Positions 139-20,000 of a DNA stretch of 20,000 nucleotides are shown here, piece after piece (positions within the stretch are counted from its first letter, which is position 1; each line of letters starts with the position of its first letter). The position numbers were made by a program, and so were the translations under genes. The stretch is from Cladosporium halotolerans (taxonomy: Eukaryota). The stretch lies in contig NW_027191463.1 of assembly GCF_011745625.1 (NCBI RefSeq), positions 605,265-625,264 on the forward strand. The letters run 5' to 3'. The notes beneath the pieces are model-generated. The model saw only the letters and a list, made by a program, of their open reading frames with translations, was not told the DNA's origin and ran no database searches.

Positions 139-241
139 GTAAGTTACGCACCTTGCATGCTCACTGAGACTATGCTTCTCTGCCGCGACATGCTGCAGTC
201 TCGAACAGGTCTATGTGCACACGAGCTAACCAGGCGCATAG
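139..241 (+). other. Probable 5'-UTR intron of the SUMO gene
   Basis: CAG|GTAAGT donor at 139, GCTAAC branch site at 225-230 and TAG acceptor at 239-241, all upstream of the SUMO ATG at 413. Confidence 0.6.
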
Positions 242-412
242 GCAAGAACCCGGTTTCAAGACAGCCTTTGGTCTCACCTGCACACGTCGCGCGCGCCTCT
301 TTCGCCAGCAAGCGAGCAATCCTTCACGAGCCTGAACACCAAATTTCTGCTCTTCCTTTTCTGTCGTGTACGAAACCGCAACTCCCTAACTCCCTCGTCA
401 AACCAAGTCACC

Positions 413-764
413 ATGTCCAACCAGCCTTCCCCGTCCCCCGGCAACCAGGAAGAGGCACCGCCTCAGTCTGAGCACTTGAACATCAAGGTCACCGACAACA
501 ACAACGAGGTCTTCTTCAAAATCAAGCGCACTACTCAACTCAAGAAGCTCATGGACGCCTTCTGCGACCGCCAGGGAAAGCAGTTCCACAGCGTGCGCTT
601 CCTCTTCGACGGCACTCGCGTGAACCCTACGGACAACCCTGAGATGGTGAGTCACACGCGCGCACACATTAGCTTCATGTGAATTAATGCTAACAATGGA
701 TTAGCTCGATATGCAAGACGGCGACACGCTTGAGGTGCACCAGGAACAGATCGGTGGATGCTGA
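413..764 (+). CDS. SMT3: SUMO (small ubiquitin-like modifier) precursor, 97 aa; exons 413-646 and 705-764
   Basis: EHLNIKVTDNNNEVFFKIKRTTQLKKLMDAFCDRQGK...VRFLFDGTRV is typical SUMO. Intron 647-704 has GTGAGT, GCTAAC and TTAG. Exon 2 gives LDMQDGDTLEVHQEQIGGC*, including the di-glycine motif. Confidence 0.97.
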
Positions 765-1382: not shown

Positions 1383-2767
1383 TCAAAGCCTCGCCGCGCC
1401 GTCCAGCTGCTTACTCTTTCGCTGGTAGTTCTTCACCAGCTGCCGAATCATGAGATCCAGCATAACGTCCTCGGAGCCACCACTGTACCGTCACATTAGC
1501 CTACGATCGTCAACATTCTCCAGCCTTTGCCGAGTGTCACTTACGGGATCCTGATTCCATTCACCTCCCGCCACATCCTCTCCGCAATCTCGCCCTGCCC
1601 CGTCCTCGTATACCCATTCCCGCCATGCAGCAGCACGCTACAATCCGCACACTCCTTCAGCACAATACCCGAATGCGCCTTCGCCGCCGCCGTCAACCCG
1701 CCCAGTTCGGCGTCCGCCTCCTCCTTCCGCATTTGCGTCATCTGGTACACGAATTGCTCGATCCACGCCCAGTGGCTCTCCAGCAGCGTCCCGCACTTCG
1801 CCAACCGGTGCCGCACCACCGGCTGCTCCATCAGCGTCTTGCCGAACGCCTCACGCTTCAGGCAGTACTCGAACGCCGCTGCCAGCGCCACGCGCGACTG
1901 CCGGCACGTCCCGATCGCGATCGTCAGCCGCTCGTGATTGAAGTTCGTCATGATGTACCGCATCCCCTGCCCTTCGACGCCAACCAGGTTCTCGGCCGGC
2001 ACTTCGACGTCGTCGAGCTCGATGAACGTCGTTCCGGCGCTGATTTGGCCGGAGACTTTCAGCCGCCGCATTGATACGCCTGGGTGGCCTTTGAGCGGCA
2101 CCATGAGCAGTGAGAGGCCGGTTGGCCCGGGCCCGCCGGTGCGGACGGCCATGCAGGCGTTGTCGGACCAGATGCCGTTCGTGATCCATTTCTTCGTGCC
2201 GTTGACGATGTACTTCGAGCCGTCTTTGGATTTGACCGCCGTCGTTTTGATGTTGGCCACGTCGCTGCCGGCGTCGGGCTCCGTGATGGCGATGCACGTC
2301 CTCTTCCGGCCCCAGAAGAGATCGGGCAGGAAGCGGTCTTGCAGTTGCTTGTTGCCGAACTTGATTATGGGCGGGACTCCAAAAGCCATGCCTGTCGTCA
2401 TGCTGGCTGGCGGGCCCGCGAGGCCGGACCGGTGCATTTCGTCGATGTAGATCATTGTGTGGAAGTAGGTGAAGTCTTCGACTTTGACGACGCCCAGAAT
2501 GTCGTGGATGCCGTTTGCTTTGAGTTGTTGGACGGGGAGGGGTGAGGGGAGGGTTGGGATGAGCATGTTGTGTTTTGCGAAGGTCTGGAAGAGGTGTTCC
2601 GGGACGGTTTCCTCGCGCTCCCAGTCGAAGGCGTGGGGTGTCAGGTGCTCTGAGACGAAGGCCCGGCATGCTTGCTGCCATTTCTTGTGTTCTGCGGTGT
2701 AGTATGGCGATGGCAGGCCATTGAGCCAGGGTGGCTCGCTGAAGGGAATGGATGGAGCTTCTGGCAT
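1383..2767 (-). CDS. Acyl-CoA dehydrogenase, predicted peroxisomal; exons 2767-1545 and 1482-1383
   Basis: ACAD motifs CIAITEPDAGSD, NGTKKWITNG, FNHERL and HGGNGY. Intron 1544-1483 (GTAAGT, GCTAAT, CAG) restores IPGGSEDVMLDL. The spliced protein ends -ARL, a PTS1 signal. Confidence 0.95.
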
Positions 2768-3214: not shown

Positions 3215-3894
3215 TTATAGGGGAATCTGTTCCAATAGCCGAAGGACTGCGCGCGCAAGGAATGGCTAGCATTGAAGTCAGCTTTGTTTTCGCAAATGGT
3301 ACATCGATCCGCATCTCAACTTACCGGCTGTGCTCCTCTCGCTCCAGCGCCAGGCGTAGCCACAGTCTGACCTCCGTCGAGAACAAAGCCACCACTTGTC
3401 TGCAGGTTGTCGTCGCCGCTGCCTGTAGCAGCTGTGCCCGTCGTGCTCGCGCTGACCAAGAGTCCCGAGCTCGCGCCTGAGGACGTCGCAGCCGCAAATC
3501 CGCCATCACTGCCCGTCGATCCAGCTGTGGCCGCGCCTCCAATCGTGCCTGTGCAAGCAGCACCTTGCGGGCAGCAAGCGACGTGTCCCGCCATGTCCGC
3601 ACTGCATCTTGCGCTCGGCGAGCAGCAGAGGTCTGGAGCCCCGATGTTCCCGCAGCTGTTGTAACCTGATGGGCAGGTGTCGCTGTCTTGTCGGCGGAAA
3701 ATGTTTTCAGGGTTCTGTTGTGGCTCGGGCAGGTATGCTTGGTTTTGCTCCGGTGAGATCTCGTGGCCTGGGGTTGGTGGTATGTAGTCGGCTATCGAGA
3801 TTGGGAGGGCGGCGAAGAAGGGTTGGAGGTTGGGGAGCTGGAGGGCAGAAGCCAACACTGCCGAAAAGGCGATGAGGTGTATCGGTTGGCGCAT
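3215..3894 (-). CDS. Secreted/cell-surface protein with an 8-cysteine domain and a Gly/Ser/Thr/Ala-rich tail; exons 3894-3325 and 3265-3215
   Basis: Signal-peptide-like MRQPIHLIAFSAVLASA, a dibasic RR site before QDSDTC, and the pattern C-x6-C-x8-CC-x5-C-x9-CC-x5-C. Intron 3324-3266 has GTAAGT, GCTGAC and CTAG. Exon 2 reads PFLARAVLRLLEQIPL*. Confidence 0.8.
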
Positions 3895-4844
3895 GTTGGT
3901 CCGCGAGGATGTTGTCCAATCTCGGGGAGATGTTCGCTCGTCGGATCTTTCGCGGCAAGACCGAAGTGTGAGCCCGGTTGGGCTGCAGTCGATGTGAGCC
4001 CTGATAGTCCGATCGATGATGCTGTGCGACCCAAGCACTGCCAGCGTGTAGGAATTCACCAGATAAGTTATGTACAAAGAGCTTGTAAGAAGGGACAGCG
4101 CACAAGGTCCAAATCTGTTCAGAGCACGCAGCCCAAGGTGCGAGCTGGTGGCAGGGTATGAGCTCACACTGCGGAGAGCCGTTGCCAAATTCGGCATTGT
4201 GTTGTCGCGCCAGTCGCGCGCGTTTGGCAGAGCAACGGCCAACTTTAACCCTTGAATTGACCGCAACCATACCCTTGCTCCTGTCAAAGGACGACGTCGT
4301 CACTGCACGCAGTTCTCAGGCATCATGGTTGTATGACCGGGCACTTTTATTATCATTCGCTTTCGACCAAGCATGCTCGGTCAAATATTGTCTATCAAAG
4401 CCATCAGCGACTGCCTCACCAGACCGCTCGTCAATGGACAACCGGTTGATCGTCATACGCGCCTTCTCTGGCCCCCGCCCTGATGGGAACAAAGATTTCG
4501 TGCGGTCAAGAAATGTAATCGTGACTTGCAGACGCGCTTTTGGCCTGTCGGTTTCTGATGAAGAAAGCGCTTGCCTGGATCTACCTACTCTGAGCATACC
4601 TTCCGAGCTCACGCTCACCTGCGCCTTCTCACGCAGATCTCGGTATACCATGTAAGATCAAGTAGGTACGCACCGCAATGCGATGCCTTCCAACGCTCGC
4701 TGGACTCATGTTTTGTTTCCCAACTCTTCTCCGCCGCCTCCTCTCCATCATCACGCCACTACCAAAGACATCCCTCAGTTGTCTACCACAGAGAGCAAAC
4801 TTCCCAAGAATCTCACATCAGCTGTTGCAATAGGAAGAGCGGAT

Positions 4845-6119
4845 ATGCTGCTGCTCCCGCTCCTCCTTGCGGCGAAAGCCCTAGCTCAAGGGACCACCCA
4901 TACCATCACCATCCTGGACGATGAACCCGATCAACGCACGTTGAATACTGTCACCTCTACTGGTCCCGGGGATGTCTTCACTACCTTTACCCTCAAGCCC
5001 TCTGGGGTTGATGAAAACAGCCAGACGAGATGGGTCGAGCATACCGGCCGCACCGCCAAAACCACAGTGACAAGCGAGCTCTCCATTCCGCCAGGGACTT
5101 CGACGTCGACCAAACCTTCAGGCACAGCGACTCAATCACTCTCGTGGGTCGCAGGTCCTCACCTGGAAGTAGTCACTTTTGTTGATCCGGACGGCAAGAG
5201 TCGTACCGTCACTCGGGCGGATCTTCAGAGCACGCATGTCACTCTCTCGCCTTCGACCAAGTCCGACGGAACCACTGTCCTTGTGCCTCAGTCTTCAACG
5301 GCGCCGGATGATACTGAGATTTTCACTGTCACCAGGGTCCACACCTCTGGGGAGGATGGTGTTGTCGGTGTGTCCACTGCCAGCAAATTCCACACATCTG
5401 CCGCAGATGGTGCGGGTATTCTGACTGTCACCAAGTTCCACACGTCGCAGCAACAGAAGGCTGCTGTCGAATCTGCGGCTGGAGGCGCCAAATCCAAATC
5501 AAAGTCGAAATCGAAACCGAAACCAAAACACAAACCCAAAGGCAACTTCTTCGCATACCTGCAAGCACTGCGGGTTCAGCGTCAACGAAGTTTCATCTTC
5601 CTGCTGCTTGCCATAGCCACTGCCACACTCGTCTTGCTAGTATTGTTTTTCTGCTGCTGCGCCTGGATGTTCCGCAAACGCCAGAAAAAGACCCGCGATC
5701 GCAACGGTAAAGAGGTGGCTGAGGTCACTGATGCGGCTGGCAACGTTGTGACAACAACGGCAGGATCTGGCGGAGGAGCTGGCGGAGCGGGCAGTGGTTC
5801 CAACGTCGTCACCTCATCCGGCGGAGGGAGTGGAGCAGGAGGTTCCGGCACCGCGACCCAAGTCGTCCCCGTCACGGACTCATCAGGCACTGCCACTACA
5901 GCCACCGGTACCGAAGCCAGCCGCGCCGGCACCATGCGCCGCGCCGCTGAAGAAGGCCGCGCTCCCCAGCGTGTCCGCTTCGGCGAGCAACCTAACGAGA
6001 CCGTCACGACGACCACGACGCAAGTCGACGGCAGCACCGAGATGCGCACTGGCAGCGAGATCTTCGACGTCGGCTCCATGCGCGGCCGCAAGCGCAACCG
6101 CGGCGATGAGCCCCTCTAG
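4845..6119 (+). CDS. Mucin-like type I membrane protein (signal peptide, Thr/Ser-rich ectodomain, single TM helix, low-complexity cytoplasmic tail)
   Basis: A start at the in-frame ATG 4845 gives the signal peptide MLLLPLLLAAKALA-Q. It is followed by a Thr/Ser-rich region, the TM segment FIFLLLAIATATLVLLVLFFCCCAWMF, a basic stop-transfer RKRQKK and a Gly/Ser/Thr tail. The upstream ATG at 4683 is less likely. Confidence 0.75.
   Translation: MLLLPLLLAAKALAQGTTHTITILDDEPDQRTLNTVTSTGPGDVFTTFTLKPSGVDENSQTRWVEHTGRTAKTTVTSELSIPPGTSTSTKPSGTATQSLSWVAGPHLEVVTFVDPDGKSRTVTRADLQSTHVTLSPSTKSDGTTVLVPQSSTAPDDTEIFTVTRVHTSGEDGVVGVSTASKFHTSAADGAGILTVTKFHTSQQQKAAVESAAGGAKSKSKSKSKPKPKHKPKGNFFAYLQALRVQRQRSFIFLLLAIATATLVLLVLFFCCCAWMFRKRQKKTRDRNGKEVAEVTDAAGNVVTTTAGSGGGAGGAGSGSNVVTSSGGGSGAGGSGTATQVVPVTDSSGTATTATGTEASRAGTMRRAAEEGRAPQRVRFGEQPNETVTTTTTQVDGSTEMRTGSEIFDVGSMRGRKRNRGDEPL
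5490..5540 (+). repeat. Degenerate 6-bp tandem repeat encoding the KS/KP dipeptide run (KSKSKSKSKPKPKHKPK)
   Basis: aaatcc aaatca aagtcg aaatcg aaaccg aaacca aaacac aaaccc aaa, read directly from the sequence. Confidence 0.8.
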
Positions 6120-6540
6120 GCGCCCGACTCGTCCACGCAGGACGATGATCGGGGCAGGCTGGCCAGGTGGGGGCTGTTTCCTGGCAAGTCCAGGTTTGTC
6201 AGGGGTCACTGAAGTGCCAGAGTCATATGGATCAGCCTTTCGACTTTACGTCTCGCCCCTAATGATGTTCGTCTTTTGTTCTGGTGTTTGTGTTCGAAAT
6301 ATTAATTGGACTGACCCGATTCGCTCTTTTGGCTTTTTGATTTCACGTTACGCACGACAATGAGCTGGGCATGGTTAGCGCAGGTTTTGGATAGAAGACA
6401 GATCCATGAATGCAAATAATGTGTATTGCGATGCTGCACAGTCCATTTCCGTCGATCAACACGTCACCCTGCGAAAGTATCTGTTGATCCTAGCACGGGA
6501 CGTTTGAAATTTGGACCTACACATTCATTGCACCAGGTGG

Positions 6541-6723
6541 TGTCACAGTCTGGCCAGATATATCTGAGCAACTAATAACAACTTATTAGACATCCTCAAG
6601 CATTGTATTGAGCTGCAAAACCACCCTTGCCAGCCTCGGCGGTCCGGGCTTCAGGTTTTTTTTGGCAGCCTTGCCTGCCCGAACCAAGCCCCCCGCCACC
6701 CAAGTGCCATCGGGCTTGTGATA
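6541..6723 (-). mobile_element. Putative solo LTR (~183 bp) of an LTR retrotransposon
   Basis: The ends TGTCACA (6541) and TGTGATA (6717-6723) are inverted repeats with one mismatch, a CpA>TpA change of the RIP type. The minus strand ends ...CAATACAA...CTGGCCAGACTGTGACA, an LTR-like terminus. The element is non-coding and the flanks show no target-site duplication. Confidence 0.5.
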
Positions 6724-6746
6724 TCCAAACTCACAGCCGCAAAGAT

Positions 6747-7790
6747 TCACAACTCGGCCTCCTTCGTGTCCGTCGAAAAGTCGGTACTACATGACAAATC
6801 TTTGAAGTCGTCTAGAGACTTGAGCATAGCTCGGCATTTTGCTTGCACGGTCTTGAAGCAATCCGATCCAAGAAAGATCCGGAATGGAATGTCAGACCTG
6901 TGTTTGAAGTGACCCTCACGTCTTGCTAAATCCGCGATACATTCGGCGGCCAAATGCGGATCGCCAGGCTGCTTTCCATCCGCGTTCTTTAGCCTGTCGC
7001 TGTACGCGTTGATGATAGAGGCGTACTCGGACGACACATTGGCGCTGTCGAGCTTGCGTCGGTCCGCACTTAGCACGCCAGTCCTGAACATGCCCATGAC
7101 AATGAGATGTGTCTCTATGTTGAATTGGCTGATTTCGAGTTGGAGGCACTCCGCCGCTCCTATCAACTGGTTAGTGACAGGAGCCTACTGATGACTTGAG
7201 AGAGGTCTCTGCGTGCACACCAATCATACCTTCCAGGGCAAACTTCGAGGCACTGTAAGGCCCACCGGCAGCCACACCGGCCCAGCCGGCGACACTGCTG
7301 ATGAAAATAACCTTACCACTACCTTGTTGCCTCATGAATGGTAGCACTGATCGCGTAAGTCTCAACGGGCCAAGGACGTTTGTCTCGAGTTGATGGCAGA
7401 CATCCTCATGGCTAGAAAGCTCCGTTAGCTGACGTCGGACGTGTAAGCGAATGTTGGAATGAACAGTAAGCAGTGGAAAACGTACCCGACCTGCTCCCAC
7501 ACGCCGGATTGCACGTAGCCGGCATTATTGACCAGAACGTCTATCCGGCCGAAATGCGAAATAGCTTCCGATGCCTTCTCATCTAGATCTGCTTGCGACG
7601 CCGCGACATCTAGTGCCAGAGCCCTGCAGTTGTCGCTCTGTATCAAGGTATTATCAGGCGACTCCAACTTTCGCGCTGTGACAACCACTCTGTCCCCACG
7701 AGCCAGTGCCGCTTTGGCCAAGAGTAGGCCGAGGCCCGATGAGCACCCAGTCACGAGCCAGACTCTCGAGGTAATGCTTGTATCGACCAT
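6747..7790 (-). CDS. Classical short-chain dehydrogenase/reductase; exons 7790-7486, 7411-7230, 7159-6747
   Basis: WLVTGCSSGLG (TGxxxGxG), DVLVNNAG, ISS and catalytic YSASK. Introns 7485-7412 (GTACGT, GCTAAC, TAG) and 7229-7160 (GTATGA, ACTAAC, TAG) join three ORF-track fragments in frame. Confidence 0.92.
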
Positions 7791-8382
7791 GGTCCTTTGC
7801 TTTTTCTTTTGAGTGAGATTTTCCTGTATTGGCCCTACAAACAATTATGAACAATTTGTTCAGTAATGAGGCAGGCGTCATCTGGATGCTTCGTTGTGAT
7901 ACTGATTCATGTGCTTTCAAATGACACTTAGTCATGTTCAAGGGCTCGGTGCCAAGGGCAGCTGAACCCACTTCTTCGGGAGGCCACTTCGCAACAAATC
8001 CGATGGGCTGATCAATTAATGATCACAACAGCTCTACGGATGGTCAAAACATTGAGGGCAGGTGTCATGAGATCAGATAGAAATTACAGAACTGCTTGGC
8101 TGGGCTACTTTCGAAGAAGGACATGTACGAAGGTGCGAACATGACCAAGCATACAAAGTTGTCGCGATTAACGACAAAGTGCAGCATTCCAACTGTGGCG
8201 TTTCATGACTCGATCTTCATACGATGGAAGCGGCGAACTTGAAATGCATGAGCCAACCCTAATCAACGCGATTCTTGCAGTGATCTCGGCACAATTCATT
8301 GCATAATCATCGATTGTCTCATTCGCTACGTGAGCCTAGGACCAAAGTGAGCACAACGACTTCCTGAACATTCAGGACTTAG

Positions 8383-9483
8383 TTAAGCCCGTGCTGTTAT
8401 CTTAAGGTATTCTCTACTGAAGGGATAATCTACGTATCCAATTGGATCCTTTGGCGTGTAGAAAGTCGACCGGTCGTAATCATTGAGCGGCAAACCTTCA
8501 GAAATACGAAACGGGAGGTCTGGATTCGCCAGGAAAGACCGCCCGAACGCAAAGGCGACGGAAGAATTCCCATAGCTTCTTGATCGGTCTTGTGCGCTCT
8601 TTGGCGTGAAGCCGCCCGCTAAAATGACTGTTCCGTGGGTTGTCCACACGTTCACCAGTAGATCTGTCTGATCTGAAGAGGCCTCAATCGTTTGGGAGCC
8701 GGAGACGCGAGGTTCGACGACGTGAAGATATGCCAGTCCCAAGGGTTTCAGCTTATCAGCTAGATCCAGGAATTGCGGCAACGGATCGTTCATCCTCATT
8801 CCTTGGAAGGGGCTCCATGGACTCACTCGATAGCCAACCCTCTGCGGGCCAACTGCGGCAGCGACTGCAGCGGCCACTTCTGCTCCGAAACGGGATCTGT
8901 TACCAACACTGCCGCCCCAACCATCGTTTCGGCGATTACATGTGTCCTGGAGAAATTGATCGGGAAGATATCCATTAGCCCCGTGAACTTCGACACCATC
9001 GAATCCGGCCTCTATCGCGTTCTTCGCAGCCATGGCGTAATCCTCGATGAACGCACGGATGCCCTTTTCAGTCAGCGGAAGAGGCACTGGCGAGTCAGGC
9101 AATGGAACATCTGAGCTGGACACCAAGCCATGCCCGCTGGCTTCCAGAACCTTCGCATCAGCAGCGCGACCAAGCGCCCACAGCTGGCAGAAGATATAAC
9201 AGCCCTTGGCATGCACGGCTTCGGTTACATTGCGCCATGATTTGATCTGCTCATCGGTATAAATGCCAGGGACGTTCAGCCTGCCTCCCGCTCGGTGCGA
9301 GATGAAGGTCCCTTCGGTGATCAGCAGCGTGCCAGGGACAGAAGCTCTTTGCGAATAGTATTCGGTAACAATGTCGAGGGGTACGCCATTGTCGTCTGCT
9401 CGGACCCTAGTTAGGGGCGCGAGAACAATTCTGTGCTTGAGATCGATGCCGCCGATGCTGATAGGGTCGAACAAGGATGACAT
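8383..9483 (-). CDS. Old Yellow Enzyme family NADH:flavin oxidoreductase (ene-reductase), 366 aa, intronless
   Basis: LAPLTRVRA, YYSQRA, CQLWALGR, AGFDGVEVHGANGYL (His/Asn/Tyr active site), FGRSFLANPDL and C-terminal TFY...GYVDYP. Confidence 0.95.
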   Translation of the reverse strand: MSSLFDPISIGGIDLKHRIVLAPLTRVRADDNGVPLDIVTEYYSQRASVPGTLLITEGTFISHRAGGRLNVPGIYTDEQIKSWRNVTEAVHAKGCYIFCQLWALGRAADAKVLEASGHGLVSSSDVPLPDSPVPLPLTEKGIRAFIEDYAMAAKNAIEAGFDGVEVHGANGYLPDQFLQDTCNRRNDGWGGSVGNRSRFGAEVAAAVAAAVGPQRVGYRVSPWSPFQGMRMNDPLPQFLDLADKLKPLGLAYLHVVEPRVSGSQTIEASSDQTDLLVNVWTTHGTVILAGGFTPKSAQDRSRSYGNSSVAFAFGRSFLANPDLPFRISEGLPLNDYDRSTFYTPKDPIGYVDYPFSREYLKITARA

Positions 9484-9805
9484 TGCGCGATGAATTTGTT
9501 GGCGCTACAATGGTAAAGTTGTATGAATGATCGTCGGAGTGCAATGATCAACAGGTCAAGATGGTCCACGTCTCACAGCCAACAGCACCTGAGAGAGCTC
9601 TTATAGTCGTCTCGTCACTACCGTGTTTGTAATCAGATCTGATCGCCGCGCCCAGATCCCGTCGGCACCATGAATCATGTGCGGTTGGATACAAGGAGAG
9701 GGATTCCAATTTTACATCCTATACGGACGCCTGAGCAGCAGCGCTTACCAATGTCCCAATGAGTCATGTTACGTTGGCACTCCCTTTCACGGAATTGCAG
9801 GCCCC

Positions 9806-11522
9806 TTACAACTTTGACGATGGCGCCATGCGCCACACTCGGCCCGACTGCGGTTTGCGCGCGCGCAATTGTCGCCGTAGAATCTTGCCGGCTGCGCTCT
9901 TAGGAATCGTGTCAACTACTTCCACCTCCGCCAGCCACTTCGCCCGAGCTTTTCTCTCCGAAACATACTGCATGATCGACTGTGCCGTCTGCTGTGAGTT
10001 GCTCGTTCCCACTTGCAGAACCACAAAGGCTTTGGGCCGTTCTCCCGAGCGCTCGTCCGATATGCCACACACTGCAATATCGCTCACCGCCGGGTGGGAC
10101 AGCAGGAGCTGCTCTATCTCTGCAGGAGCGACGCCGATACCCTTCACCTTGATCATTTCTTTCGCTCGGTCTGTGATGTGCAGCATGCCCTCACTGTCCA
10201 TCATGCCTATATCGCCTGTGTGCAAAAAGCCATCTGCGTCAAACGCTTCCGCTGTGGCCGTTGCGTTGTTCAGATACCCCATGGCAATTTGCGGGCCGCG
10301 AGCCCAGATCTCTCCTTCCTCGCCGACGCCCATCTCCTTGCAGCTTTCCATGTTAACAATCTTCAGCTCGGTAGACGCGACCAACATCCCAACCTTGTCC
10401 GCATTACGGTACGCGTACTTGGACGGGGGATGAGATGTGATGGCCGAGCACGACTCTGAGAGACCATATCCTTGCTTGAATCCGCTTCCGGGGAAGTGGG
10501 ACTCCAATTCTTCCAATATGGCTTTCGGCAGCGGTGCAGCACCGGATGAGAACCGCTTGATGTGCGACAGGTCGTATCTGGACAATACTTCCCTTTCCCG
10601 TACCATGCGGAGAAGGATCGGTGGAACAACAAGCAGTTCACGGACCCGGTACTTGGATGCCGTCTCCAGGAACGTGTCAAGCGTGTATTTCGACAAGACG
10701 TAAACGTTCGCGTTCAGGGCGATTGGAAGAGCGAATTGGTGAATGAGGCCCGTGACATGGTAGTAAGGCAGACCACCCATGACTTTGTCGTGATCGCTGG
10801 GCGTTATCTGTTGAACTTGCAAGCACTGGGCAATGACATTTGCGTGCGAGATCTGCACAGCTTTGGGCAAACCAGTGGTACCGCTGCTGAAACACAAGAA
10901 TGCACACAACCGGGTGTTTGATCTGCCTGGTGTAATGCGAAAGGTTTGCGCTTCAGACTTCTCCCCAGCCGCTTTGCCTGCAGAGATGAGGTTGTCGAAT
11001 CCATGCGTTCCGACCACATCCGCGTCGAAAAGTACAACATGGGACGCTTCCATGCCGCAGTTCTTCGCAGCGATCTGTGCCGCCTCGAGTTTGTCCTGCG
11101 TCGTGAAAATGCACTTTGCTTGGCTCAGCTCGAGGCAGTGCGAGAGCTCTTCCGAAGAGTAGTCTGGTGAGACACCACATGCCACCACGCCGAGCCGGAG
11201 TGCTGCGAGCATGGCCACCGGGTATTGAATCGCATTGCGACTGTACACCAGAGCGACATCCCCTTCGCGGAGTGTTAAGACCCTTTGCAAGGCTGTGGAG
11301 AGATACTTGGCCCTTAATGACACATCTTGGTAGCTGCAATGCTGCTCCGTGAGTGCATCAGTGAGTCCTTTGGTAGCGCTGTTCGTGAGCTTTGGATTGT
11401 CGAAGAGCCAAGACCAGAGCGTGACGTCTTGGGGCACTGTTATCCTCATCAGTGCTTGAACATCTAAATCAATCAATGACTATCTGACCTTCAATGTCGG
11501 GGTGAATCGATTTGAACAACAT
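9806..11522 (-). CDS. Peroxisomal acyl-CoA ligase (4-coumarate-CoA ligase / phenylacetyl-CoA ligase-like); exons 11522-11489 and 11436-9806
   Basis: AMP-binding motifs FSSGTTGLPK, GYGLSE, HTGD and PKSAAGKILRR, with C-terminal SKL. A 52-nt intron 11488-11437 (GTCAGA...CTGAT...CAG) gives the N-terminus MLFKSIHPDIEVPQDVTLWSWLF, replacing the non-ATG start in the ORF track. Confidence 0.93.
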
Positions 11523-11860
11523 CGTACAAGACTATGAGATAGACTGAAGGTTGTGTGGAGTGCTGGCGTGAGATCTTTGATACAATCGTATCGTTGTCGT
11601 ATTCTCAAATAGAAGTCGAAGAGCTGGGGATGAGGTGAGGCCACTAAATGCAGGATGGATAGCAGCGTCCGCCGGCCAGCAATCAGGTACGCCAAGCTCA
11701 AGGGTCGTTGGCAAGGAGAGTCATGCTTGACACCACTGCTCTGCCATGACTCAGTCTAGATATCTTCCAACTGGATGGGGTGTTATAACGAGGCATGCCC
11801 TTCAGGTCATGAAGCGGCTCACAACTTAGACTTGGAACTGAACTTTCAACAGCATACGAA
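11523..11860. promoter_or_regulatory. 338-bp divergent intergenic region, likely bidirectional promoter for the CoA ligase and the phosphotransferase
   Basis: Head-to-head ATGs at 11522 (-) and 11861 (+). Confidence 0.6.
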
Positions 11861-13178
11861 ATGTCGATGGACGTAAGGCAACCCATCGACACTGCAGCCC
11901 TGGAAAGCTACCTCCATTGCAACACGCCGTCAATTTTAGGACCTCTTGATGTGAAGCAGGTTAGTGGCGATTTCGCAAAAAGTCCCAAACCCCCAAGAAC
12001 CACCATCACATAGGCAGCGCGATAGCGAGTTGAGGTGTAGTCTTGACTGACGAAAATGCGGATGTAGTTCAGCAATGGTCAATCCAATCCAACATATCTC
12101 CTAACCTCGCAACAGAAACAGCGATATGTTCTGCGAAAGAAGCCTCCTGCGGCCTCAGGAAATAGTAACAGCCATCAGATCGAGAGGGAATATCAGATAC
12201 TCGCCGCTTTGCAACCGTCCAACGTCCCAGTTCCACGAATTTTTGGTCTGTGCCAAGACGCATCGATAATTGGGACGCCATTTTACATCATGGAATTTTT
12301 AGATGGCCGAATCTTTGATAATCCCTGGTTACCGACTCTGCAGCCGAAGGAGAGAAGCTTGATGTAAGGGGAACCCCGCCTCAAGATGCTCATTACAAGA
12401 GCTCGAGAGAGTACTAACCGCATCCTTAATCAGATGGAAAGAGGCATTGGAGACGCTGGCGAAACTGCACTCCATCGATCTGAGTGCCATTGGGTTACAG
12501 CATTGGAAGAAGGAAGCCAGCTTCTACAACCGTCAGATTTCTGCGTTCAATCGCATTAGTGCTGCTCAGGCTGAGGCAAAGTTTACCACGAGGCAGCAGC
12601 TAGTCGGACAGATTCCCTACTTCGAAGAGCTGAGTAGATTTTTCTCTTGGGCGAACATGCAGCCGACAGAACGGAAAACGCTCGTCCACGGAGACTTCAA
12701 GATCGATAATCTGATCTTCCACAGATCCGAGCCGCGTGTAATCGGCGTTCTGGATTGGGAACTGGCCACAGAGGGCCACCCGCTTGGGGACCTGGCAAAC
12801 TTATTGTCACCTATGTTAAGCTCGGCGGAAGACATGACCTGGCTGGCAGAGCAGACACTCACGGCCGACTTGGCGATGTCCCGAAAGATGATGCGCTCTG
12901 AAATAACTGCAGGGGTACCAAGCATCCCGGAATGCCTCAGTTGGTACGCTAGGCTGAGTGGATGGGAAGTTTCGGGAGACGATATGCTCTGGGCGGCTGC
13001 GTTCAACAGCTTCCGCACGGCGGTCATCATGCAGGGTATTGCGGCCAGACTGGCAAGAGGCCAGACAAACAGCGCTCAAGCGGTGCCATTTGCCCTGCAA
13101 ACATTTCCGTACGCCGTCTTGGCATATGCCCGTGTCCAGCAGATCAAAGACAGCTCGGGTCTGAAGGGTAGACTCTAG
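11861..13178 (+). CDS. APH-family phosphotransferase homologous to the ACAD10/ACAD11 kinase domain (LvaA-like); exons 11861-11959, 12068-12363, 12434-13178
   Basis: The spliced product contains VRQPID, QFSNGQSNPTY, YVLRKKPP, HQIEREY, GTPFYIMEFLDGRIF, HGDFKIDNL and GVLDWELAT.GHPLGD. Introns 11960-12067 and 12364-12433 have canonical signals. The protein ends -GRL (PTS1-like). Confidence 0.92.
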
Positions 13179-13885
13179 GGTTGATCAGACTGAGTCAGGC
13201 AATCATCCGTGATTATTCTCTTGTCCGCAGATTCCATATCCCCATCGCAAGTCACCGGTTTTGAAATCGTGCGAGCACCACCTTTAGCCGTCGGACCTGT
13301 CGTTTCCCTTGCCTTCCCCATTGCCTCATCTCTCGCTCATCTCCGTCCTATCAAGATGGTGACTTGCGTGATCCAACGATTGCCTTGAGCTTCCAGATGA
13401 CTCGTTATCGTGACCCACACGAAATATGCGTCATTCCAAAGCAATGCGATATATGTTTCCCGTGGCGTCGAGATCTAAGCCGCTGGCCCGGCGGGAGTAA
13501 CGTCACGGCAAGCCCGCAACTCGCCCACGCGGAAGCGGGTCAAACTGCAGCGACCCGGAGCAGATTGCAATGACTCATTTGCCAATGCTTGCCGGAAGCT
13601 CCAGGCTTCAGACTAGCCTATGTGAATTTTGCTGTCGCACCGGTCCCTTGTTCTCCGCCTTGTGTTTCCAGGCCAGGTGCCGATGCACCCGCAGTCGAAC
13701 ATGACACGGGTAATGTTTGTGCTGTTGATCGGGAGATGTGTGCTGCTGAGCGTCCACGTCGCCAGTCAGCCGGTTTGCCACACATATACGGGAGTCTGTC
13801 TCAAGGAGCACAGCAATCATGCAATAGTGTCTGAATCGATTCTCTTCCACACGCAAACATCACCGCAGCGTTGCAACTCTTTACC

Positions 13886-15235
13886 ATGCAGGCAGTCGTA
13901 TTCAAGGGAGTGAGGGATGTAGCCGTGGAAGAGAGGCCTAAGCCCAGCTTGCAAGATTCGAGTGACATAATAGTGAAGGTGCGCTACACTGCATTGTGCG
14001 GCAGGTGAGTCAGATAACTATATGTCCGTCATCGTTCATTCACACCTCCATGGTCTTTTTGAAGTACTTTGGAAATCGCTGACCCGATATGCCGAATATT
14101 ATAGCGAGCTGCATGTCTTTCGCGGTCACCAGCCTTCTGGCACTGGGTTTATCATGGGCCATGAGTTCACTGGAACAGTAGAGGAGATTGGCAGCGACGT
14201 TCACACTGTGCAGAAAGGTGACATGGTTGTGGCACCTTTTACTGTCAGCTGTGGGGAATGCTTCTTCTGCAAGAACGGATTTTCTTCTCGGTGCCAACAA
14301 AGTCGCCTATTCGGAACCGCTGCTCTGGATGGCGGTCAGGCTGAGTACGTGCTTGTGCCTCTGGCAGACTCCACAGTCGTCAAAGCCCCCGACAACATTG
14401 AGGAGTTGAAACTCTGTTTGATGGCCGACATCTTCCCTACCGGCTATTTCGCCGCGTCAAACGCTTTCAAGGATGCCACCAAGGAGCAGATTCAAGACAG
14501 CGTAGTCGTCCTATTCGGCTGCGGGCCGGTAGGCCTTTGTGCGCTCGTCTCGGCTTTAATGTATAAGCCTAGAGCTCTACTTGCAGTCGACGGTGTTGAA
14601 AGTCGTCTCACGACTGCAGAACAGCTCGGTGCAGAACCATGGAACTATCAGGCTCCTGAAGCGTTGACTGCCCGAGTTAATGAGTTGACTAATGGACGCG
14701 GTGCCGACATGGTCATCGAGGTGGTGGGTCACAGCTCCGCTCTTGACTTGGGGTTCAAGCTACTGCGCTCTTGGGGCAGAATGTCTAGCGTTGGAGTCCA
14801 CAATGGTGAAATCCCTTGGACCGGAAACCAAGCCTATGGCAAGAACCTTACCATACAGATGGGGAGATGTCCTGTGAAGAGTGAGCCTTCATCCCTTCCG
14901 CTATCACTAAGTTGCACTAAATCCTCACATGACGATGGTTTCCCTACATTGCCAAAATCACACATCTAGCTTCGACGATAAAGCCGAGAACTGACAAAAG
15001 ATATCAGGTATTTTCAAAGAGGCGCTCAAAGCTTTGGAAAAGCAACAAGAACTGCTCGGGTACGTCAGTGGCTGTCTTTTCGGAAAATGATACAACCCAC
15101 TTTTGGATTCAGCTAACTGTTGCTTTCGCCAGTTTCATGACCGAAACTGTGATGCCTTTAAGTCAGGCTGTCGAAGGCTATGAGATTTTTGACAAAATGA
15201 GGGCTCAGAAGGTGATTTTTGATGCCACGAAGTGA
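13886..15235 (+). CDS. Zinc-dependent medium-chain alcohol dehydrogenase (formaldehyde-dehydrogenase-like); exons 13886-14004, 14105-14880, 15008-15059, 15133-15235
   Basis: ALCGSELH (spans intron 1), GHEFTG, structural Zn site CGECFFC...SRC, ADIFPTG and GCGPVG. Three introns with canonical donor, branch and acceptor sites give an unbroken frame ending KVIFDATK*. Confidence 0.93.
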
Positions 15236-15653
15236 ACAACAGCAGACTCTTTCGACTGCCAACTTGCGTCTGACAAGAGAAAGGAGCGAGGGCCAAGTTG
15301 GCCCAAGGCATTCATGATTCGTTGTACTTCATCGCGTAGTGTTGCTTGTAGATCTGCGCACACATCATTTGCACTGCACCGATTTCCTATTAGGCGTAGA
15401 TGTCTTGAGAACGTGGTTCGCCCAGGACATGCGATTCAGCATCATCCGTTATTGATGCCATGGCTTTCTGATGCCGATTGAATACATCATCTTTACTAGC
15501 GGAAAGGAATCAGTGAATGTTTACAAGTTTCTCCACTTACGCCAGAGCGAAAATTGGATGGACTGAAGAGGCAACCGTTGTGCAAAATGATGTGTAGCGT
15601 CTTGTGTTAAGCAAGATGTTTCTTATGGAACATGGTTTCTGCCTTTCTACCGT

Positions 15654-17249
15654 CTATAGATTCCCAATGGTCACAGACTTCACATTTTGATACTCCTGTA
15701 TCCCCAGAAGACTGCCCTCGCGACCGCAACCACTTTCCTTGACTCCACCAAACGGTGTCTCGGCGGCGCTTATGAGACCGGTGTTTACGCCCACCATACC
15801 ACACTGGAGTTGGCGTACAACCCGCATAACGCGACTGATATCTCTGCTGAAAAAGTAACCAGCGAGCCCGTATTCAGTGTCGTTTGAGAGCCTTATCGCC
15901 TCTGATTCGTCGGAAAAAGCAAAAATGGCTGCAAGGGGTCCAAATGTCTCTTCGTAGGCGACTTGCATGGCAGAAGTCGCTCCCGTCAGCACCGTGGGCT
16001 GGTAGAAGAATCCTTTCCCATCCGCAGGCGCTTGGCCACCAGTAAGCAGACGGGCTCCTTTGGCGATTGCGTCCTGGACATGTGCTTCCATCTTCGAAAC
16101 TGCTGCGCGGTTGATCAAAGGACCTTGAGTAGTATCGGTATCGAGCCCAGCCCCGAGTCTGAGCTGCTCCACACGAGAGACTAGTTTGGCGGCAAACTCA
16201 TCAACGATGCTCTCGTGCACCAGCAGGCGGTTCGCGCAAACGCATGTCTGTCCGGCGCAGCGAAATTTGCAGGCCATGGCGCCGTCTACGGCTTTGTCGA
16301 TATCGGCGTCCTCGAACACCACGAAAGGCGCGTTACCTCCAAGCTCCATGCTGATACGCTTCATCGTTCCCATGGCGGTGGCGGCTAGCATTTTGCCCAC
16401 CTTGGTCGATCCAGTGAAGCTGAGTTTCTTCACGTCGGGGTTCCTAGCAAGTTCCATTGATGCCTCACGGTCTTTGGTAGGAATGACGTGTATTACATCA
16501 GCTGGAATGCCCGCATCGAGAGCCAGTTTAGCCAGGGCCAACGCAGTCAGTGGCGTTTCGCTTGGTGGTTATAACCACCGAACAACCGGCTGCGATTGCT
16601 GGCGCCACCTTACGCGTAATCATAGCCGCGGGAAAATTCCAAGGAGTGATGATACCGCAGACACCAACCGGCTCCCGGTATGTAGACACCATGGTGTTGG
16701 GTTGCGATGATGCGATAGTATCACCGTAAGCCCTGGTCGCTTCTTCTGAAAACCAGGAAATGAACGAGGCGGCATAATTGACCTCGCTCTTCGCCTCAGC
16801 AATCGTCTTGCCGTTCTCCAGGGACAAGATGATAGCAACTATTCCGATTTCGTTAGCAAATACTGTTCACTCTAGCGTTCGATGTCGTCCATGCTCGAGA
16901 AATCCGACTTGGAAGAAGGATTTTAGGAATGAGCAGAAGCCAGGAGGTGAAACTACCCACGGTCAAGATGGTTTGCCATGACAAGGTCGTGCCATCGTCT
17001 TAAGAGTGAGCCTCTCTGCTTCGCTGTGGTTTGTTCGAAGAATACTTTGGTGCCGGATTTCGCACTCCCAATTGCGTCTATGAATGCTGACCTATCCAGA
17101 TCTGCGCATCGAAGGAGCACGCCCCCTGTTGCCGGATTGATGACAGGAAAAGTGTTGTTGCCTTTCGCTTGTTTCCATTTTCCGGCGATCAAGCCTTCAG
17201 AGATCACAAGAGACTGATCTTGTAATTTCAAGAAGCTGTCGATCGCCAT
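15654..17249 (-). pseudogene. Succinate-semialdehyde dehydrogenase-like NAD(P)+ aldehyde dehydrogenase with a frameshift near 16569; exons 17249-16961 and 16838-15654
   Basis: ALDH motifs [41 protein letters not shown] and EETFGP. Intron 16960-16839 has GTGGGT, GCTAAC and TAG. The conserved VIKPPSETP reads GTT ATA A CCA CCA AGC GAA, 2 nt short, so this is either a pseudogene or an assembly indel. Confidence 0.85.
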
Positions 17250-17995
17250 TATTCTAAGATCACAAGAGTCGATGCTGATAAAAGATGACGGAAATTACCG
17301 ACAATGTAAGCTGTGTGAGGAAGGCCTTGTGAGTCTCCACGAATGTCTCCTCAGTATATGTTTAATGGTGGTTGGAACATCACATTGAAGACACCAAATA
17401 TATTGCGTATTGGAACCGCTGTTCCGCTCATCCGATTAAGGCTCTCATATTTGCAGCTAGAACATGACGCAGATTTTATCAGACTGCCGGAGCAAAAGCG
17501 TCGACAATGATTCATGCCCCTGTCGGAGAGTGAAGCTCCGAATGGGCCCGATAGATGTTCGCTCGACCTGCGCAGACACCCAGTAGAGCCTCGGTTGATC
17601 AGTCTCTGATTGTCTTGCCAAGTCAGGCTTTTTCGTATTCGCATGTAAGGGTCCATGTGCTTTTATCCGCCTTCGCTCGGCTTCAAAGTCGCTGTTACTG
17701 CATCTAGAATGCTCCAGACGCATGATAACAATAAATCAATCAATGCGATCGGTACAATACATTGAAGTCTCGGCGCCTGACGTTCATATTGATAGGGTGT
17801 CGAGGTACTCATTGATGGGAAGACGGCTAGCAGACGTGACTTTCTTGGACTGTGGAAAGCTGGCCAGTCTTGGGAACATGAGCGATTCGCAACTAGAGAG
17901 GGTCTACGAACATGATACATGCGGAGCCAATGCATCTTATATACTGTTTTTACTTTTGGAAGTGCCATCGAGGAATAGGACCGCAACCTTTTCAC

Positions 17996-19420
17996 TCAAA
18001 TCCGCCCACGCTCGTAGAACTTGGTAGGGATGTCGACGTGCTTGCACCGAAGATACTCGGCAAGGTTCTTACCCAGGACATCATATGTAGAGCTTGAGGC
18101 AACACCTCGGTCCAAATGATCCTTGAGAAGGAAGTGTACAGCTGGAGTGAAATTGTCAATATCAGTAAAGTCTCAGCGCAGGCTCCAGTTGAAGAGGGGC
18201 TACTCACCCCAGATGTTGGGCAGCTCGAAGCGATGGATGGCTCCCCCAGAGTCATCGTCTGCCAGAAGCTCCCTGATCTTCGTTGTCGACAAGAGCGAGC
18301 GCAGCCAATCCCATTCATCCGCACTTCGCACAAAGAATCCAACGTTGGCATCCGACCCTTTGTCTCCCGACCTCGCATGGACGATGTGTCCAAGCGGAGC
18401 TCTGACAGTCGGACCCAGCGTGTCAAGTTGGACAGGCTTGTCGGTCTCGTAGCTCGGCTGCTCCGACAGGAAATCAAGGGTATCAGTTGGGTGAGGGATG
18501 TCGATCCGGAGGTGCTTACTAGGCACGACGGCCACGTGCTTGACATCCGATTGTGGAAGGAGCGTAACGAAGTATTCATAATACGGCTTTGGAACGCCCT
18601 GCCGAGTATCAACCGCAAAGGTTGCGCCTGGATAGCTTTCCATGATAATATCCGTGACAGGCCGAAGGAAATTTTGCGGCAGCAATGCCTTCTCATCGCG
18701 CGACTGCGCAAAGATGCGGAAGTCCACTGTTGCAGAGTCTTGATTGGTGGGCTCCTCTGGACATCGGCCGTTCGTGCGGAATTTGAGTGTATGGTACTTG
18801 TTTGTATCGAGCATGGCTCTGATCTGCTTTTCGGCCATGGCCGCTTTTTCTGCAATGTCGAGGCCACACATGAAGTAATGCACTTCTGCCTGATATCCGC
18901 CACGTGCAGTCAGGCCAACTTTTGTCGTCGGCGGGGGCTTGATGTATCCCACGTTAGAGATGCGACTGCTTCTCGTCAGCTTGGCTCGGGATGTTGACGA
19001 ATGTGGAATACAAACACTCGATTGTCGCTGACTTCCTTGATCTCAACGTTTGAAAGCTCAGCAACAACGTCGGAATTATAGTATAGCGGGCCTTGAATTT
19101 CGTAGAGGAATTGTGCTTTGCACGTGTCGACAGTCACCATCCCTCCCCGGTCTCCCTGCTTCGTGATGACGAAGGTACCATCCGCAGCAATTTCAGCAAT
19201 AGGGTACCCAATGCGAGAGACGTCCCCAGGCAGGCTTTTGAAACCTGAAAAGTTGCCGCCGGTCACGTAGGTGGAGCACTCAAGGAAGTGCCCCGCGACG
19301 AACGAATGCGCTAACTCAGACAACATGTCTCTACTCCATCCATGGAAGTAAGCGGCACAAGCCATGGTAGGTGACGCGTCCGCGACTCTTCCACACACCA
19401 CAATGTCAGCGCCATTCTGG
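17996..19420 (-). pseudogene. AtuA (acyclic terpene utilization, DUF1446) family gene, 3' portion only, interrupted by a hAT transposon; exons ~19420-19016, 18965-18208, 18141-17996
   Basis: GADIVVCGRVADAS, AGHFLECSTYVTGGNF, GYPIAEI, YEIQGPLYYNSDV, PPPTTKVG, ARSGDKGSDANVG and DVLGKNLAEYLR. Introns 19015-18966 and 18207-18142 restore the frame, which ends -GRI. The N-terminal part is missing and transposon sequence sits in its place. Confidence 0.88.
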
Positions 19421-19432
19421 CAGACTTCTGCA

Positions 19433-19547
19433 CAATCAATCAAGCTCAAGCGGGAACTATATGCTTGATTGATTGACTGACTGGGCTTGCTTGATTGCTT
19501 GAGCTTGAGAGTAGCAAGCGCTTGATTGATCGCTTGATTACGCTTGA
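19433..19547. repeat. Subterminal repeat array of the hAT element
   Basis: A perfect 13-bp inverted repeat CAATCAATCAAGC (19433-19445) / GCTTGATTGATTG (19463-19475). GCTTGA occurs at 19463, 19489, 19497, 19503, 19520, 19532 and 19542, and inverted TCAAGC at 19440 and 19446. Confidence 0.85.
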
Positions 19548-19568
19548 GTCTGATGACTAACGCGTCGA

Positions 19569-20000
19569 CTATACACTCGATCCTGGCATTTTGTCCTCCA
19601 CTACCGCGCTAGCTTCTATGGCACGCTCGAAGAGGCTTTTGTCAATCGTGATGATACCTGAACGCTGCCAACTCTTCAAGCACATGAGAGAAGCAACCGT
19701 GTCGTCACTCAAACGTCGTCGCCGAGGCGAGATTGCATCGCCGGCCTGACTGAACAAGCGCTCCGGCTCGTCGGCCATAGCAGGCACAGCATATATGTCA
19801 AGCGCCATTGCCGCAAGCTGTGGCCACATCTTTCGTCTGGCTAGCCAGTACTTGATCGGAGAGTCCGCGGAGCTATACGACCGATCCGGCTGCTCGCTGA
19901 GATACTGCTCGAGTTGATCGAGCCCCGAGTCCTCCCCATCAGACCACTCGTCCGCGACGTGTTTGACGCTCTTTTCTCCATTATCGCTATCTGTCCCAGC
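19569..20000 (-). CDS. hAT transposase, C-terminal dimerization region (partial, 5' end outside the window)
   Basis: The frame is open from 20000 to the stop at 19569: DQLEQYLSE...PIKYWLARRKMWPQLAAMALDIYAVPAMADEPERLFSQAG...RRRRLSDDTVASLMCLKSW. This matches the hAT dimerization signature. Confidence 0.92.
   Translation of the reverse strand, partial: AGTDSDNGEKSVKHVADEWSDGEDSGLDQLEQYLSEQPDRSYSSADSPIKYWLARRKMWPQLAAMALDIYAVPAMADEPERLFSQAGDAISPRRRRLSDDTVASLMCLKSWQRSGIITIDKSLFERAIEASAVVEDKMPGSSV

Follow-up and report, generated by a model that had tools for sequence, protein, structure and literature searches.

At positions 6747-19420 of a 20,000-nucleotide stretch of the Cladosporium halotolerans genome (contig NW_027191463.1, positions 605,265 to 625,264 of the forward strand; called the window here), seven genes for enzymes lie side by side. 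We lean towards regarding this region as a conserved fungal catabolic cluster, probably peroxisomal, with a core consisting of a 4-coumarate-CoA ligase (4CL)-type acyl-CoA ligase, a kinase of the LvaA/ACAD10/11 type, and a protein of the AtuA family. Beyond this core, we infer the substrates, the order of the steps, the role of AtuA, and the membership of a short-chain dehydrogenase/reductase (SDR), an old yellow enzyme (OYE), and an aldehyde dehydrogenase (ALDH) of the succinate-semialdehyde dehydrogenase (SSADH) type. The map was based on a Pfam scan of the 33 stop-to-stop open reading frames (ORFs), a six-frame reading, and lists of ATG ORFs, and by these means all seven enzyme families that an earlier reading of this DNA (the original prediction) had placed next to each other were found where it had put them. 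Coordinates were taken from the ORF lists, and exon borders of the SDR, the zinc-dependent alcohol dehydrogenase (Zn-ADH), the ALDH, AtuA, and an acyl-CoA dehydrogenase (ACAD) further left are partly approximate. The window is fungal and its genes contain short introns. The cluster region comprises:

6747-7790, minus strand: SDR in three exons, ATG at 7790, frame open; adh_short 1.3e-16 and 1.1e-15 on two exons.
8383-9483, minus strand: OYE, single exon, intact; Oxidored_FMN 2.8e-84 across the full profile.
9806-11449, minus strand: 4CL/luciferase-type acyl-CoA ligase, single exon, 547 amino acids, ending in SKL; AMP-binding 9e-72 and AMP-binding_C.
11450-11860, no strand: divergent intergenic region between ligase and kinase, 411 bp between the start codons, presumably a shared promoter.
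11861-13178, plus strand: APH kinase, exons 11861-11959, 12068-12363, and 12434-13178, 379 amino acids, ending in GRL; APH 2e-19 and 2.4e-21.
13886-15235, plus strand: medium-chain Zn-ADH in four exons, the third read by eye; ADH_N 8.8e-20 and ADH_zinc_N 1e-16.
15654-17249, minus strand: SSADH-type ALDH, broken; Aldedh 4.7e-112, 7e-30, and 1.2e-07 on three pieces, NCBIfam TIGR01780 (SSADH) 1.9e-129.
17992-19420, minus strand: AtuA/DUF1446 remnant; AtuA 2.6e-70 and 9e-38, AtuA_ferredoxin 4e-07.

Seven enzyme genes in a row are weak evidence in themselves, as by our estimate chance gives a few such rows per fungal genome. The cluster stands above chance because the linkage of AtuA, kinase, ligase, and ADH is conserved elsewhere. 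Of the linkage in other fungi that had been envisaged for all seven genes, the part concerning these four holds, and the claim rests on them. Protein searches were made with kinase, ligase, and AtuA, the last among longer proteins, and then locus tags, contig sizes, and accession numbers were compared. Linked AtuA, kinase, and ligase members occur in 12 species of Dothideomycetes and Sordariomycetes, and a linked ADH in one species:

Verruconis gallopava: AtuA PV09_08679, kinase PV09_08680, ligase PV09_08681, with consecutive locus tags.
Dendryphion nanum: AtuA KAH7109893, kinase KAH7109894, ligase KAH7109895, consecutive.
Pseudomassariella vexata: kinase ORY69031, ligase ORY69032, AtuA ORY69037.
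Boeremia exigua: kinase KAH6632887, ligase KAH6632888, AtuA KAH6632893.
Thelonectria olida: ligase and kinase adjacent.
Dactylonectria estremocensis and D. macrodidyma: ligase and AtuA adjacent.
Ilyonectria sp., I. robusta (two assemblies), and I. destructans: ligase and AtuA 5 accession numbers apart.
Plectosphaerella plurivora and P. cucumerina: ligase and AtuA 5 and 7 accession numbers apart, respectively.
Stagonosporopsis vannaccii: merged kinase+ADH model beside the ligase.

Judged by equal contig size, five small contigs (6789, 11265, 12521, 13172, and 13529 bp) carry both a kinase and a ligase, and a ligase neighbour can be shown for five of the eight named kinases nearest to the window kinase, the remaining three not being judgeable. 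Exactly four gene models stand between ligase and AtuA in P. vexata, B. exigua, the three Ilyonectria species, and P. plurivora. Kinase, ligase, the four intervening models, which are known by count alone, and AtuA add up to seven, the same total as in the window. In S. vannaccii, the ADH half of the merged model is 70% identical to the window ADH over 269 amino acids. The merged AtuA+ADH model P0311 of Paramyrothecium was ruled out as evidence for linkage of the ADH, its ADH half being only 25% identical to that of the window. Hydrolase genes are direct neighbours of the module in I. robusta and Aspergillus arachidicola, because gene models merge a metallo-beta-lactamase-fold protein with the cluster ligase in the former (P0368) and a carboxylesterase with an AtuA in the latter (P0272).

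By sequence comparison, the window kinase is assigned to the stand-alone kinases of the LvaA or ACAD10/11 N-terminal type. The model obtained by a splice scan runs for 379 amino acids to the stop codon, and named relatives have 360-380; longer relatives, i.e., fused forms, lay outside the search. Its best solved relatives are a kinase-only structure (3dxp, 1e-24) and mouse ACAD11 (8v3v, 9e-21), in agreement with the earlier assignment as an ACAD10/11-type kinase, and its catalytic motifs HGD...N and DWE align with those of these relatives. According to passages in PMC12440821 and PMC11342911, LvaA and the kinase domains of ACAD10/11 phosphorylate 4-hydroxyacyl-CoAs, after which the phosphate is eliminated by LvaC and the ACAD domains by means of residues of an HCMR motif. 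The nearest solved relatives of the ligase are luciferase and 4CL enzymes, with an ancestral luciferase as best match in the PDB (1.3e-77), and its orthologues in other fungi, which are 55-61% identical, adjoin kinase genes. As proposed, the genes form a catabolic type of cluster that is real and conserved, and a CoA ligase is the conserved divergent neighbour of the kinase. The nearest solved relatives of the Zn-ADH, whose exons were matched using P0362, are bacterial Zn-ADHs (best match 5yln, 7e-45).

The third core member, AtuA, is present as a remnant which spans residues of about 167-604 of its orthologue, and some 165 N-terminal residues are gone from the site (tblastn with P0263, alignment A2); Pfam covers only positions 141-437 of the AtuA domain in the window, plus the ferredoxin-like domain. 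These two domains (PF07287 and PF23544) are the same as in AtuA of Pseudomonas. A sequence profile of AtuA found nothing below an E value of 0.05 in the PDB, 9evf itself having an E value above 1. A structural model was compared which represents the V. gallopava orthologue P0263 (pLDDT 81.3) and not the truncated window protein. With this model, the citramalate lyase 9evf_A comes out far ahead of other PDB entries (Foldseek E value 2.1e-19; VIA Z 29.2, root-mean-square deviation 3.4 A, 406 of 456 residues, 17% identity), so that on the evidence of a predicted structure this enzyme is the only solved structural relative of AtuA. The fold is shared across the whole AtuA domain of the model. However, the lyase, with its 456 residues, has no counterpart of the C-terminal ferredoxin-like domain, and it acts on a free acid, whereas AtuA genes adjoin genes for CoA ligases or CoA-transferases. 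The entry 9evf is entitled 'Citramalate lyase - ADP - pyruvate complex', and we infer that it is the Cml mentioned in a passage of a preprint (10.64898/2026.01.16.699985). A DUF1446 gene is noted, in a passage of PMC4682846, in the methylaspartate gene cluster of enterobacteria. In the sections of PMC13399572 that deal with Verticillium dahliae, AtuA proteins are described as previously known only from bacteria, AtuA is given no assigned function in the atu cluster either, and the atu homologues of V. dahliae are unclustered. In the cluster considered here, AtuA is a fixed partner of kinase and ligase and not a marker for terpenes. One fungal AtuA homologue is reportedly a virulence factor and a drug target.

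The C-termini of fungal relatives of ligase, kinase, and AtuA point to a peroxisomal location. In the window, the ligase ends in SKL and the ACAD in ARL, which are canonical peroxisomal targeting signals of type 1 (PTS1). Among 97 full-length relatives of the ligase, AKL (42), ARL (21), and SKL (11) prevail, and most of the 72 full-length kinase relatives end in GKL, SKL, AKL, or GRL ([GSA][KR]L). The AtuA relatives (97 full-length) possess a conserved G-[RK]-[IL] terminus, i.e., GRI in 54, GKI in 15, and GKL in 11 cases. As far as such tripeptides can be relied upon, the fungal cluster is probably peroxisomal.

One defining component each of the lva operon (lvaABCDE) of Pseudomonas putida and of the Pseudomonas atu cluster (atuABCDEFGH) was sought in the window and is absent, and for this reason the cluster is a member of neither system. 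Like the lva operon, the window encodes an SDR and an LvaA-type APH kinase along with an acyl-CoA ligase, and it might share the logic by which activation with CoA precedes the phosphorylation of a hydroxyl, as outlined for lva in parts of PMC12440821 and PMC11342911; with respect to LvaE and LvaD, the likeness of the AMP-binding ligase and the SDR is at the family level only. In contrast to lva, the window does not encode an LvaC-type dehydrogenase, as the HCMR motif (H[HQ]C[ML]R) had 0 matches in a six-frame scan of the window, the same scan being positive in bacterial loci. Furthermore, AtuA, the conserved partner here, is absent from lva, and the host is a eukaryote with peroxisomal-type ends on its proteins. 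The ACAD at 1383-2767 was ruled out as an equivalent of LvaC since it lacks the HCMR motif and best matches generic ACADs (2pg0, 9e-42), ACAD11 being absent among the best 60 matches listed. With the mammalian proteins ACAD10 and ACAD11, the cluster has in common a homologous kinase domain; moreover, ACAD11 is peroxisomal and fungal kinase relatives carry the C-termini described above. However, the fungal kinase is a stand-alone protein and an ACAD domain of the ACAD10/11 type does not occur in the cluster. ACAD11-like dehydrogenases of fungi are reported in a passage of PMC2761260 to lack an APH domain. The atu cluster, too, encodes a member of the AtuA family, with both Pfam domains in common. 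In contrast, the window contains no geranyl-CoA carboxylase, no equivalents of AtuD and AtuE, and no AtuR, and it has a kinase and a 4CL-type ligase instead; in the Pfam scan, carboxyltransferase, biotin carboxylase, and AtuE hydratase had no match among the 33 ORFs. The idea of an lva-like plus atu-like hybrid, as put forward in the original prediction, is therefore not supported.

Counterparts of the module exist in bacteria. In prokaryote genomes, patterns specific for fungal AtuA confirmed nothing, and a new alignment led to 80 loci with full-length homologues of 32-40% identity. Within 10 kb of AtuA in these 80 bacterial loci, tblastn with the window genes found a window-type kinase nine times, a ligase 26 times, and an ACAD 31 times, and two further AtuA loci hold another APH kinase with a DUF6285 domain. 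In Saccharopolyspora elongata (L096), the order is enoyl-CoA hydratase, ACAD, SMP-30 lactonase, ligase, kinase, AtuA, in S. soli of the same genus (L113) it is ligase, kinase, AtuA, TetR, and in two Streptomyces loci (L085, L086) kinase and ligase converge on AtuA. In three loci of Comamonadaceae (L088, L111, and L112), AtuA lies beside an ACAD with the motif GPGRIHHCMR of LvaC and ACAD10/11, and a kinase is nearby; L111 reads lactonase, kinase, HCMR-type ACAD, AtuA, and an SMP-30 lactonase was not found at L088 and L112, where the kinase is about 5 kb from AtuA. At L084 and L104, 4-5 kb of DNA with unrelated genes separate kinase and AtuA, and their proximity may be chance. A quick tree of the kinases, in which L104 and L128 sit on long branches and are unreliable, unites the fungal kinases in one clade (SH-aLRT 96) and the window kinase with eight cluster-linked fungal kinases in a nine-row subclade (SH-aLRT 97). 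The AtuA-linked kinases of bacteria occupy at least three separate positions in this tree and represent about three independent lineages; the association is therefore not due to one recent transfer.

A context that is distinct from, and commoner than, the one with a kinase is formed by a family III CoA-transferase beside AtuA, which occurs in at least 23 of the 80 bacterial loci (21 directly, 2 within about 5 kb), mostly in actinobacteria and often with a LysR regulator upstream (L090, L095, L100, L101, L103, L104, L108, L111, L116-L119, L122, L128, L133, L137, L139, L140, L142-L144, L151, and L152). As this transferase is the gene that most often follows bacterial AtuA, AtuA proteins seem to act on CoA-linked substrates.

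A metagenome scan with the kinase returned a general group of fungal kinases (at most 45% identity) and bacterial loci, relatives of 51-76% identity being absent from that collection. On one fungal contig of 88 kb (L011), a kinase paralogue of 44% identity and a generic ACAD without the HCMR motif are arranged divergently, and an AtuA paralogue is situated within about 4 kb of the kinase, the pair spanning 7 kb. The gene between the two (12243-13846 of L011) codes for a BBE/FAD-linked oxidase, and a GH11 xylanase is encoded downstream.

If kinase, ligase, and AtuA act together, the pathway would start from an oxygenated carboxylic acid, for example a 4-hydroxy or 4-oxo acid, or from an acid freed from a lactone or an ester, as might be expected because genes for lactonases, metallo-beta-lactamase-fold proteins, and esterases adjoin the module elsewhere. 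The suggestion of gamma-lactones or 4-hydroxy acids as substrates, made earlier for this DNA, fits the lactonase genes beside the bacterial counterparts. Where needed, the acid would be made from an alcohol or an enal by Zn-ADH, SSADH-type ALDH, OYE, and SDR. The ligase would then form the CoA thioester, the kinase would, like LvaA and ACAD10/11, add a phosphate to the hydroxyl group, and AtuA might act on the CoA-bound intermediate in the manner of a lyase, yielding a product that would enter beta-oxidation. Only tentatively do we go further and propose that AtuA is a dedicated partner of LvaA-type kinases in a ligase-kinase-AtuA module reaching from actinobacteria to filamentous fungi, and that, independently of flavin, it would act as a lyase on an acyl-CoA carrying a phosphate or a hydroxyl group, a step which in fungi would replace the dehydrogenase of LvaC and ACAD10/11, thereby providing a new peroxisomal route for lactone-derived and 4-hydroxy acids.

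In the window, the cluster is flanked by the following features:

About 240-680, plus strand: piece of a SUMO-like gene; Rad60-SLD 3e-14, ubiquitin 7e-06.
1383-2767, minus strand: ACAD in two exons, ending in ARL; Pfam Acyl-CoA_dh_N, _M, and _1.
3316-4197, minus strand: Ser/Thr-rich protein with no Pfam match.
4683-6119, plus strand: Ser/Thr-rich protein with no Pfam match.
19421-20000, minus strand, running off the window: end of a hAT transposon inserted in AtuA, with a transposase C-terminal ORF at 19569-20000; Dimer_Tnp_hAT 6.1e-16.

The ACAD, with its canonical PTS1, lies 4 kb to the left of the cluster with two unrelated genes in between, and it may belong with the cluster or serve the same peroxisomal pathway. 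The two genes which stand between them code for the Ser/Thr/Gly-rich pair; one of these proteins begins in a way that resembles a signal peptide, and the other contains just one hydrophobic segment. The sequence CCTCGG, a core site of a fatty-acid regulator, is not enriched in the window (7 matches versus 10.2 expected).

In the sequenced strain, ALDH and AtuA, two of the seven genes, are no longer intact. The ALDH has suffered a 2-base deletion between 16570 and 16571, which shifts the frame and leads to an in-frame stop, and AtuA is cut exactly at 19420/19421 by the hAT element, the transposase dimerisation domain of which lies directly upstream of the AtuA remnant in the same orientation. 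The right end given for the cluster in the original prediction thus coincides with the junction to the transposon, and the frameshift and the loss of the AtuA N-terminus come in addition to what it had described. Logan contigs from four runs were compared with positions 6000-20000 of the window. With a word share of 1.00, run X1 is probably the source sample. It matches the window at both lesions but gives no independent support, since the assembly may have been made from these very data. Runs X2 and X3 show 34 and 32 differences from the window over long pieces of 11.2 and 9.5 kb, respectively, with 40 places listed overall. Both hold two extra bases after 16570 that keep the ALDH frame open, and their contigs pass 19420 into sequence that is unlike the window and extends the AtuA reading frame. 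As the ALDH frame is open and AtuA uninterrupted in these two near-identical relatives, both lesions are specific to the lineage of the window, in which the cluster is decaying. The X1 contigs stop at 19418-19450, where depth climbs from 35 for the single-copy flank to 215-524; the hAT element ending at 19421 is therefore multi-copy, by estimate about 15-fold in X1. X2 and X3 show short matches to the hAT end, none of them at the AtuA site. In addition, 44 bases in the kinase gene (12275-12318, with AT-rich flanks) match high-depth contigs of X2 and X3 (470-640) with five mismatches, probably by chance or because of an organellar origin.

Several observations weigh against the interpretation as a conserved peroxisomal pathway. 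The figure of 12 species with linkage is biased upward, as species for accession look-ups were picked for already matching contig sizes. The best AtuA match of T. olida is on another contig than its kinase and ligase, and locus tags are about 950 apart in Exophiala bonariae and 15 apart in Fusarium nematophilum. No cluster family was found in seven further long loci from fungi with kinases of the general group, and AtuA occurs in 0 of roughly 50 bacterial metagenome kinase loci, many of which have an ACAD beside the kinase; coupling of kinase and AtuA is therefore limited to sub-lineages. With regard to targeting, GRL of the window kinase and GRI of the window AtuA are non-canonical PTS1 tripeptides, and by reading, PTS1-like ends are missing from OYE, SDR, ADH, and ALDH. 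For the step performed by LvaC, the window offers no candidate except AtuA, and the joint occurrence of AtuA and an LvaC-type ACAD in Comamonadaceae means that AtuA need not replace LvaC. Finally, SDR, OYE, and ALDH may be bystanders, since conserved linkage covers only AtuA, kinase, ligase, and ADH.

This last point leads to the view that ligase, kinase, and AtuA, with or without the ADH, are the whole functional unit and that SDR, OYE, ALDH, and the upstream ACAD are unrelated neighbours. It would explain why linkage is conserved just for these genes, why the three are consecutive with nothing between them in V. gallopava and D. nanum, why other neighbours vary by species (a metallo-beta-lactamase-fold gene in I. 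robusta, a carboxylesterase gene in A. arachidicola), and why the PTS1-like ends stop short of the redox enzymes. We consider it doubtful, however, because the intervals of exactly four models bring the total to seven in six species, because redox enzymes making the acid from an alcohol or an enal suit the logic of the pathway, and because the ALDH has decayed in the same strain as AtuA, as would be expected on joint loss of use.

That the genes serve the utilisation of acyclic terpenes such as citronellol and geraniol, as the atu genes of Pseudomonas do, seems improbable. An AtuA-family gene is present, OYE, ADH, and ALDH could process citral-type enals, and some bacterial AtuA genes do occur in contexts that fit isoprenoid breakdown, i.e., beside a carboxyltransferase or biotin carboxylase gene in Desulfobacterales (L157, L158) and beside an MpaB/Lcp-like gene of the rubber-oxygenase family in seven loci (L108, L132, L137, L139, L148, L150, and L152). 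However, neither a carboxylase subunit nor a hydratase nor another atu gene is found among the 33 ORFs, and the conserved partners of AtuA are a kinase and a ligase, for which the atu pathway has no need. According to a section of PMC13399572, deletion of AtuA3 in Verticillium caused no growth defect on citronellol, and in this cluster AtuA is not the sign of acyclic terpenes that it had been supposed to be.

It is likewise hardly to be expected that the genes tailor a secondary metabolite whose core synthase lies beyond the window: enzymes such as OYE, SDR, ADH, and CoA ligases often serve in tailoring, the nearest solved relative of the OYE is the ergot-alkaloid enzyme chanoclavine-I aldehyde reductase (4qnw, 8.8e-111), a ketosynthase adjoins AtuA in one bacterial locus (L093), and the view ends at position 1 on the left and 20000 on the right, but bacterial counterparts lie beside regulators of the TetR or LysR type, lactonases, and genes of beta-oxidation (enoyl-CoA hydratase, ACAD, thiolase), the PTS1-type ends of the fungal ligase and kinase relatives and the G-[RK]-[IL] ends of those of AtuA speak against it, and in Pfam scans no transporter, transcription factor, or core synthase was found in the 6.7 kb to the left, which hold the two Ser/Thr-rich proteins, and no polyketide synthase, nonribosomal peptide synthetase, or terpene synthase among the 33 ORFs, as had been stated before.

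An incomplete literature search, with supplements excluded, found neither a linkage of AtuA/DUF1446 with a kinase or phosphotransferase nor an lva-like cluster in fungi, in line with the earlier remark that no description of such a cluster there was known to its author. If the interpretation as a conserved catabolic cluster is correct, two families with no known role, the stand-alone ACAD11-like kinases of fungi and AtuA/DUF1446, gain testable biochemical hypotheses. Widespread among both bacteria and fungi, AtuA is joined with the kinase and a CoA ligase across kingdoms. The broken alleles of the sequenced strain and the intact alleles of its near-identical relatives provide a natural comparison. 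The cluster suggests a third form of the phospho-acyl-CoA route for 4-hydroxy acids, beside the lva operon and mammalian ACAD10/11, and such a route, if true, would be relevant to the removal by fungi of products of lipid peroxidation, of lactones from plants, and of levulinate or gamma-valerolactone derived from biomass.

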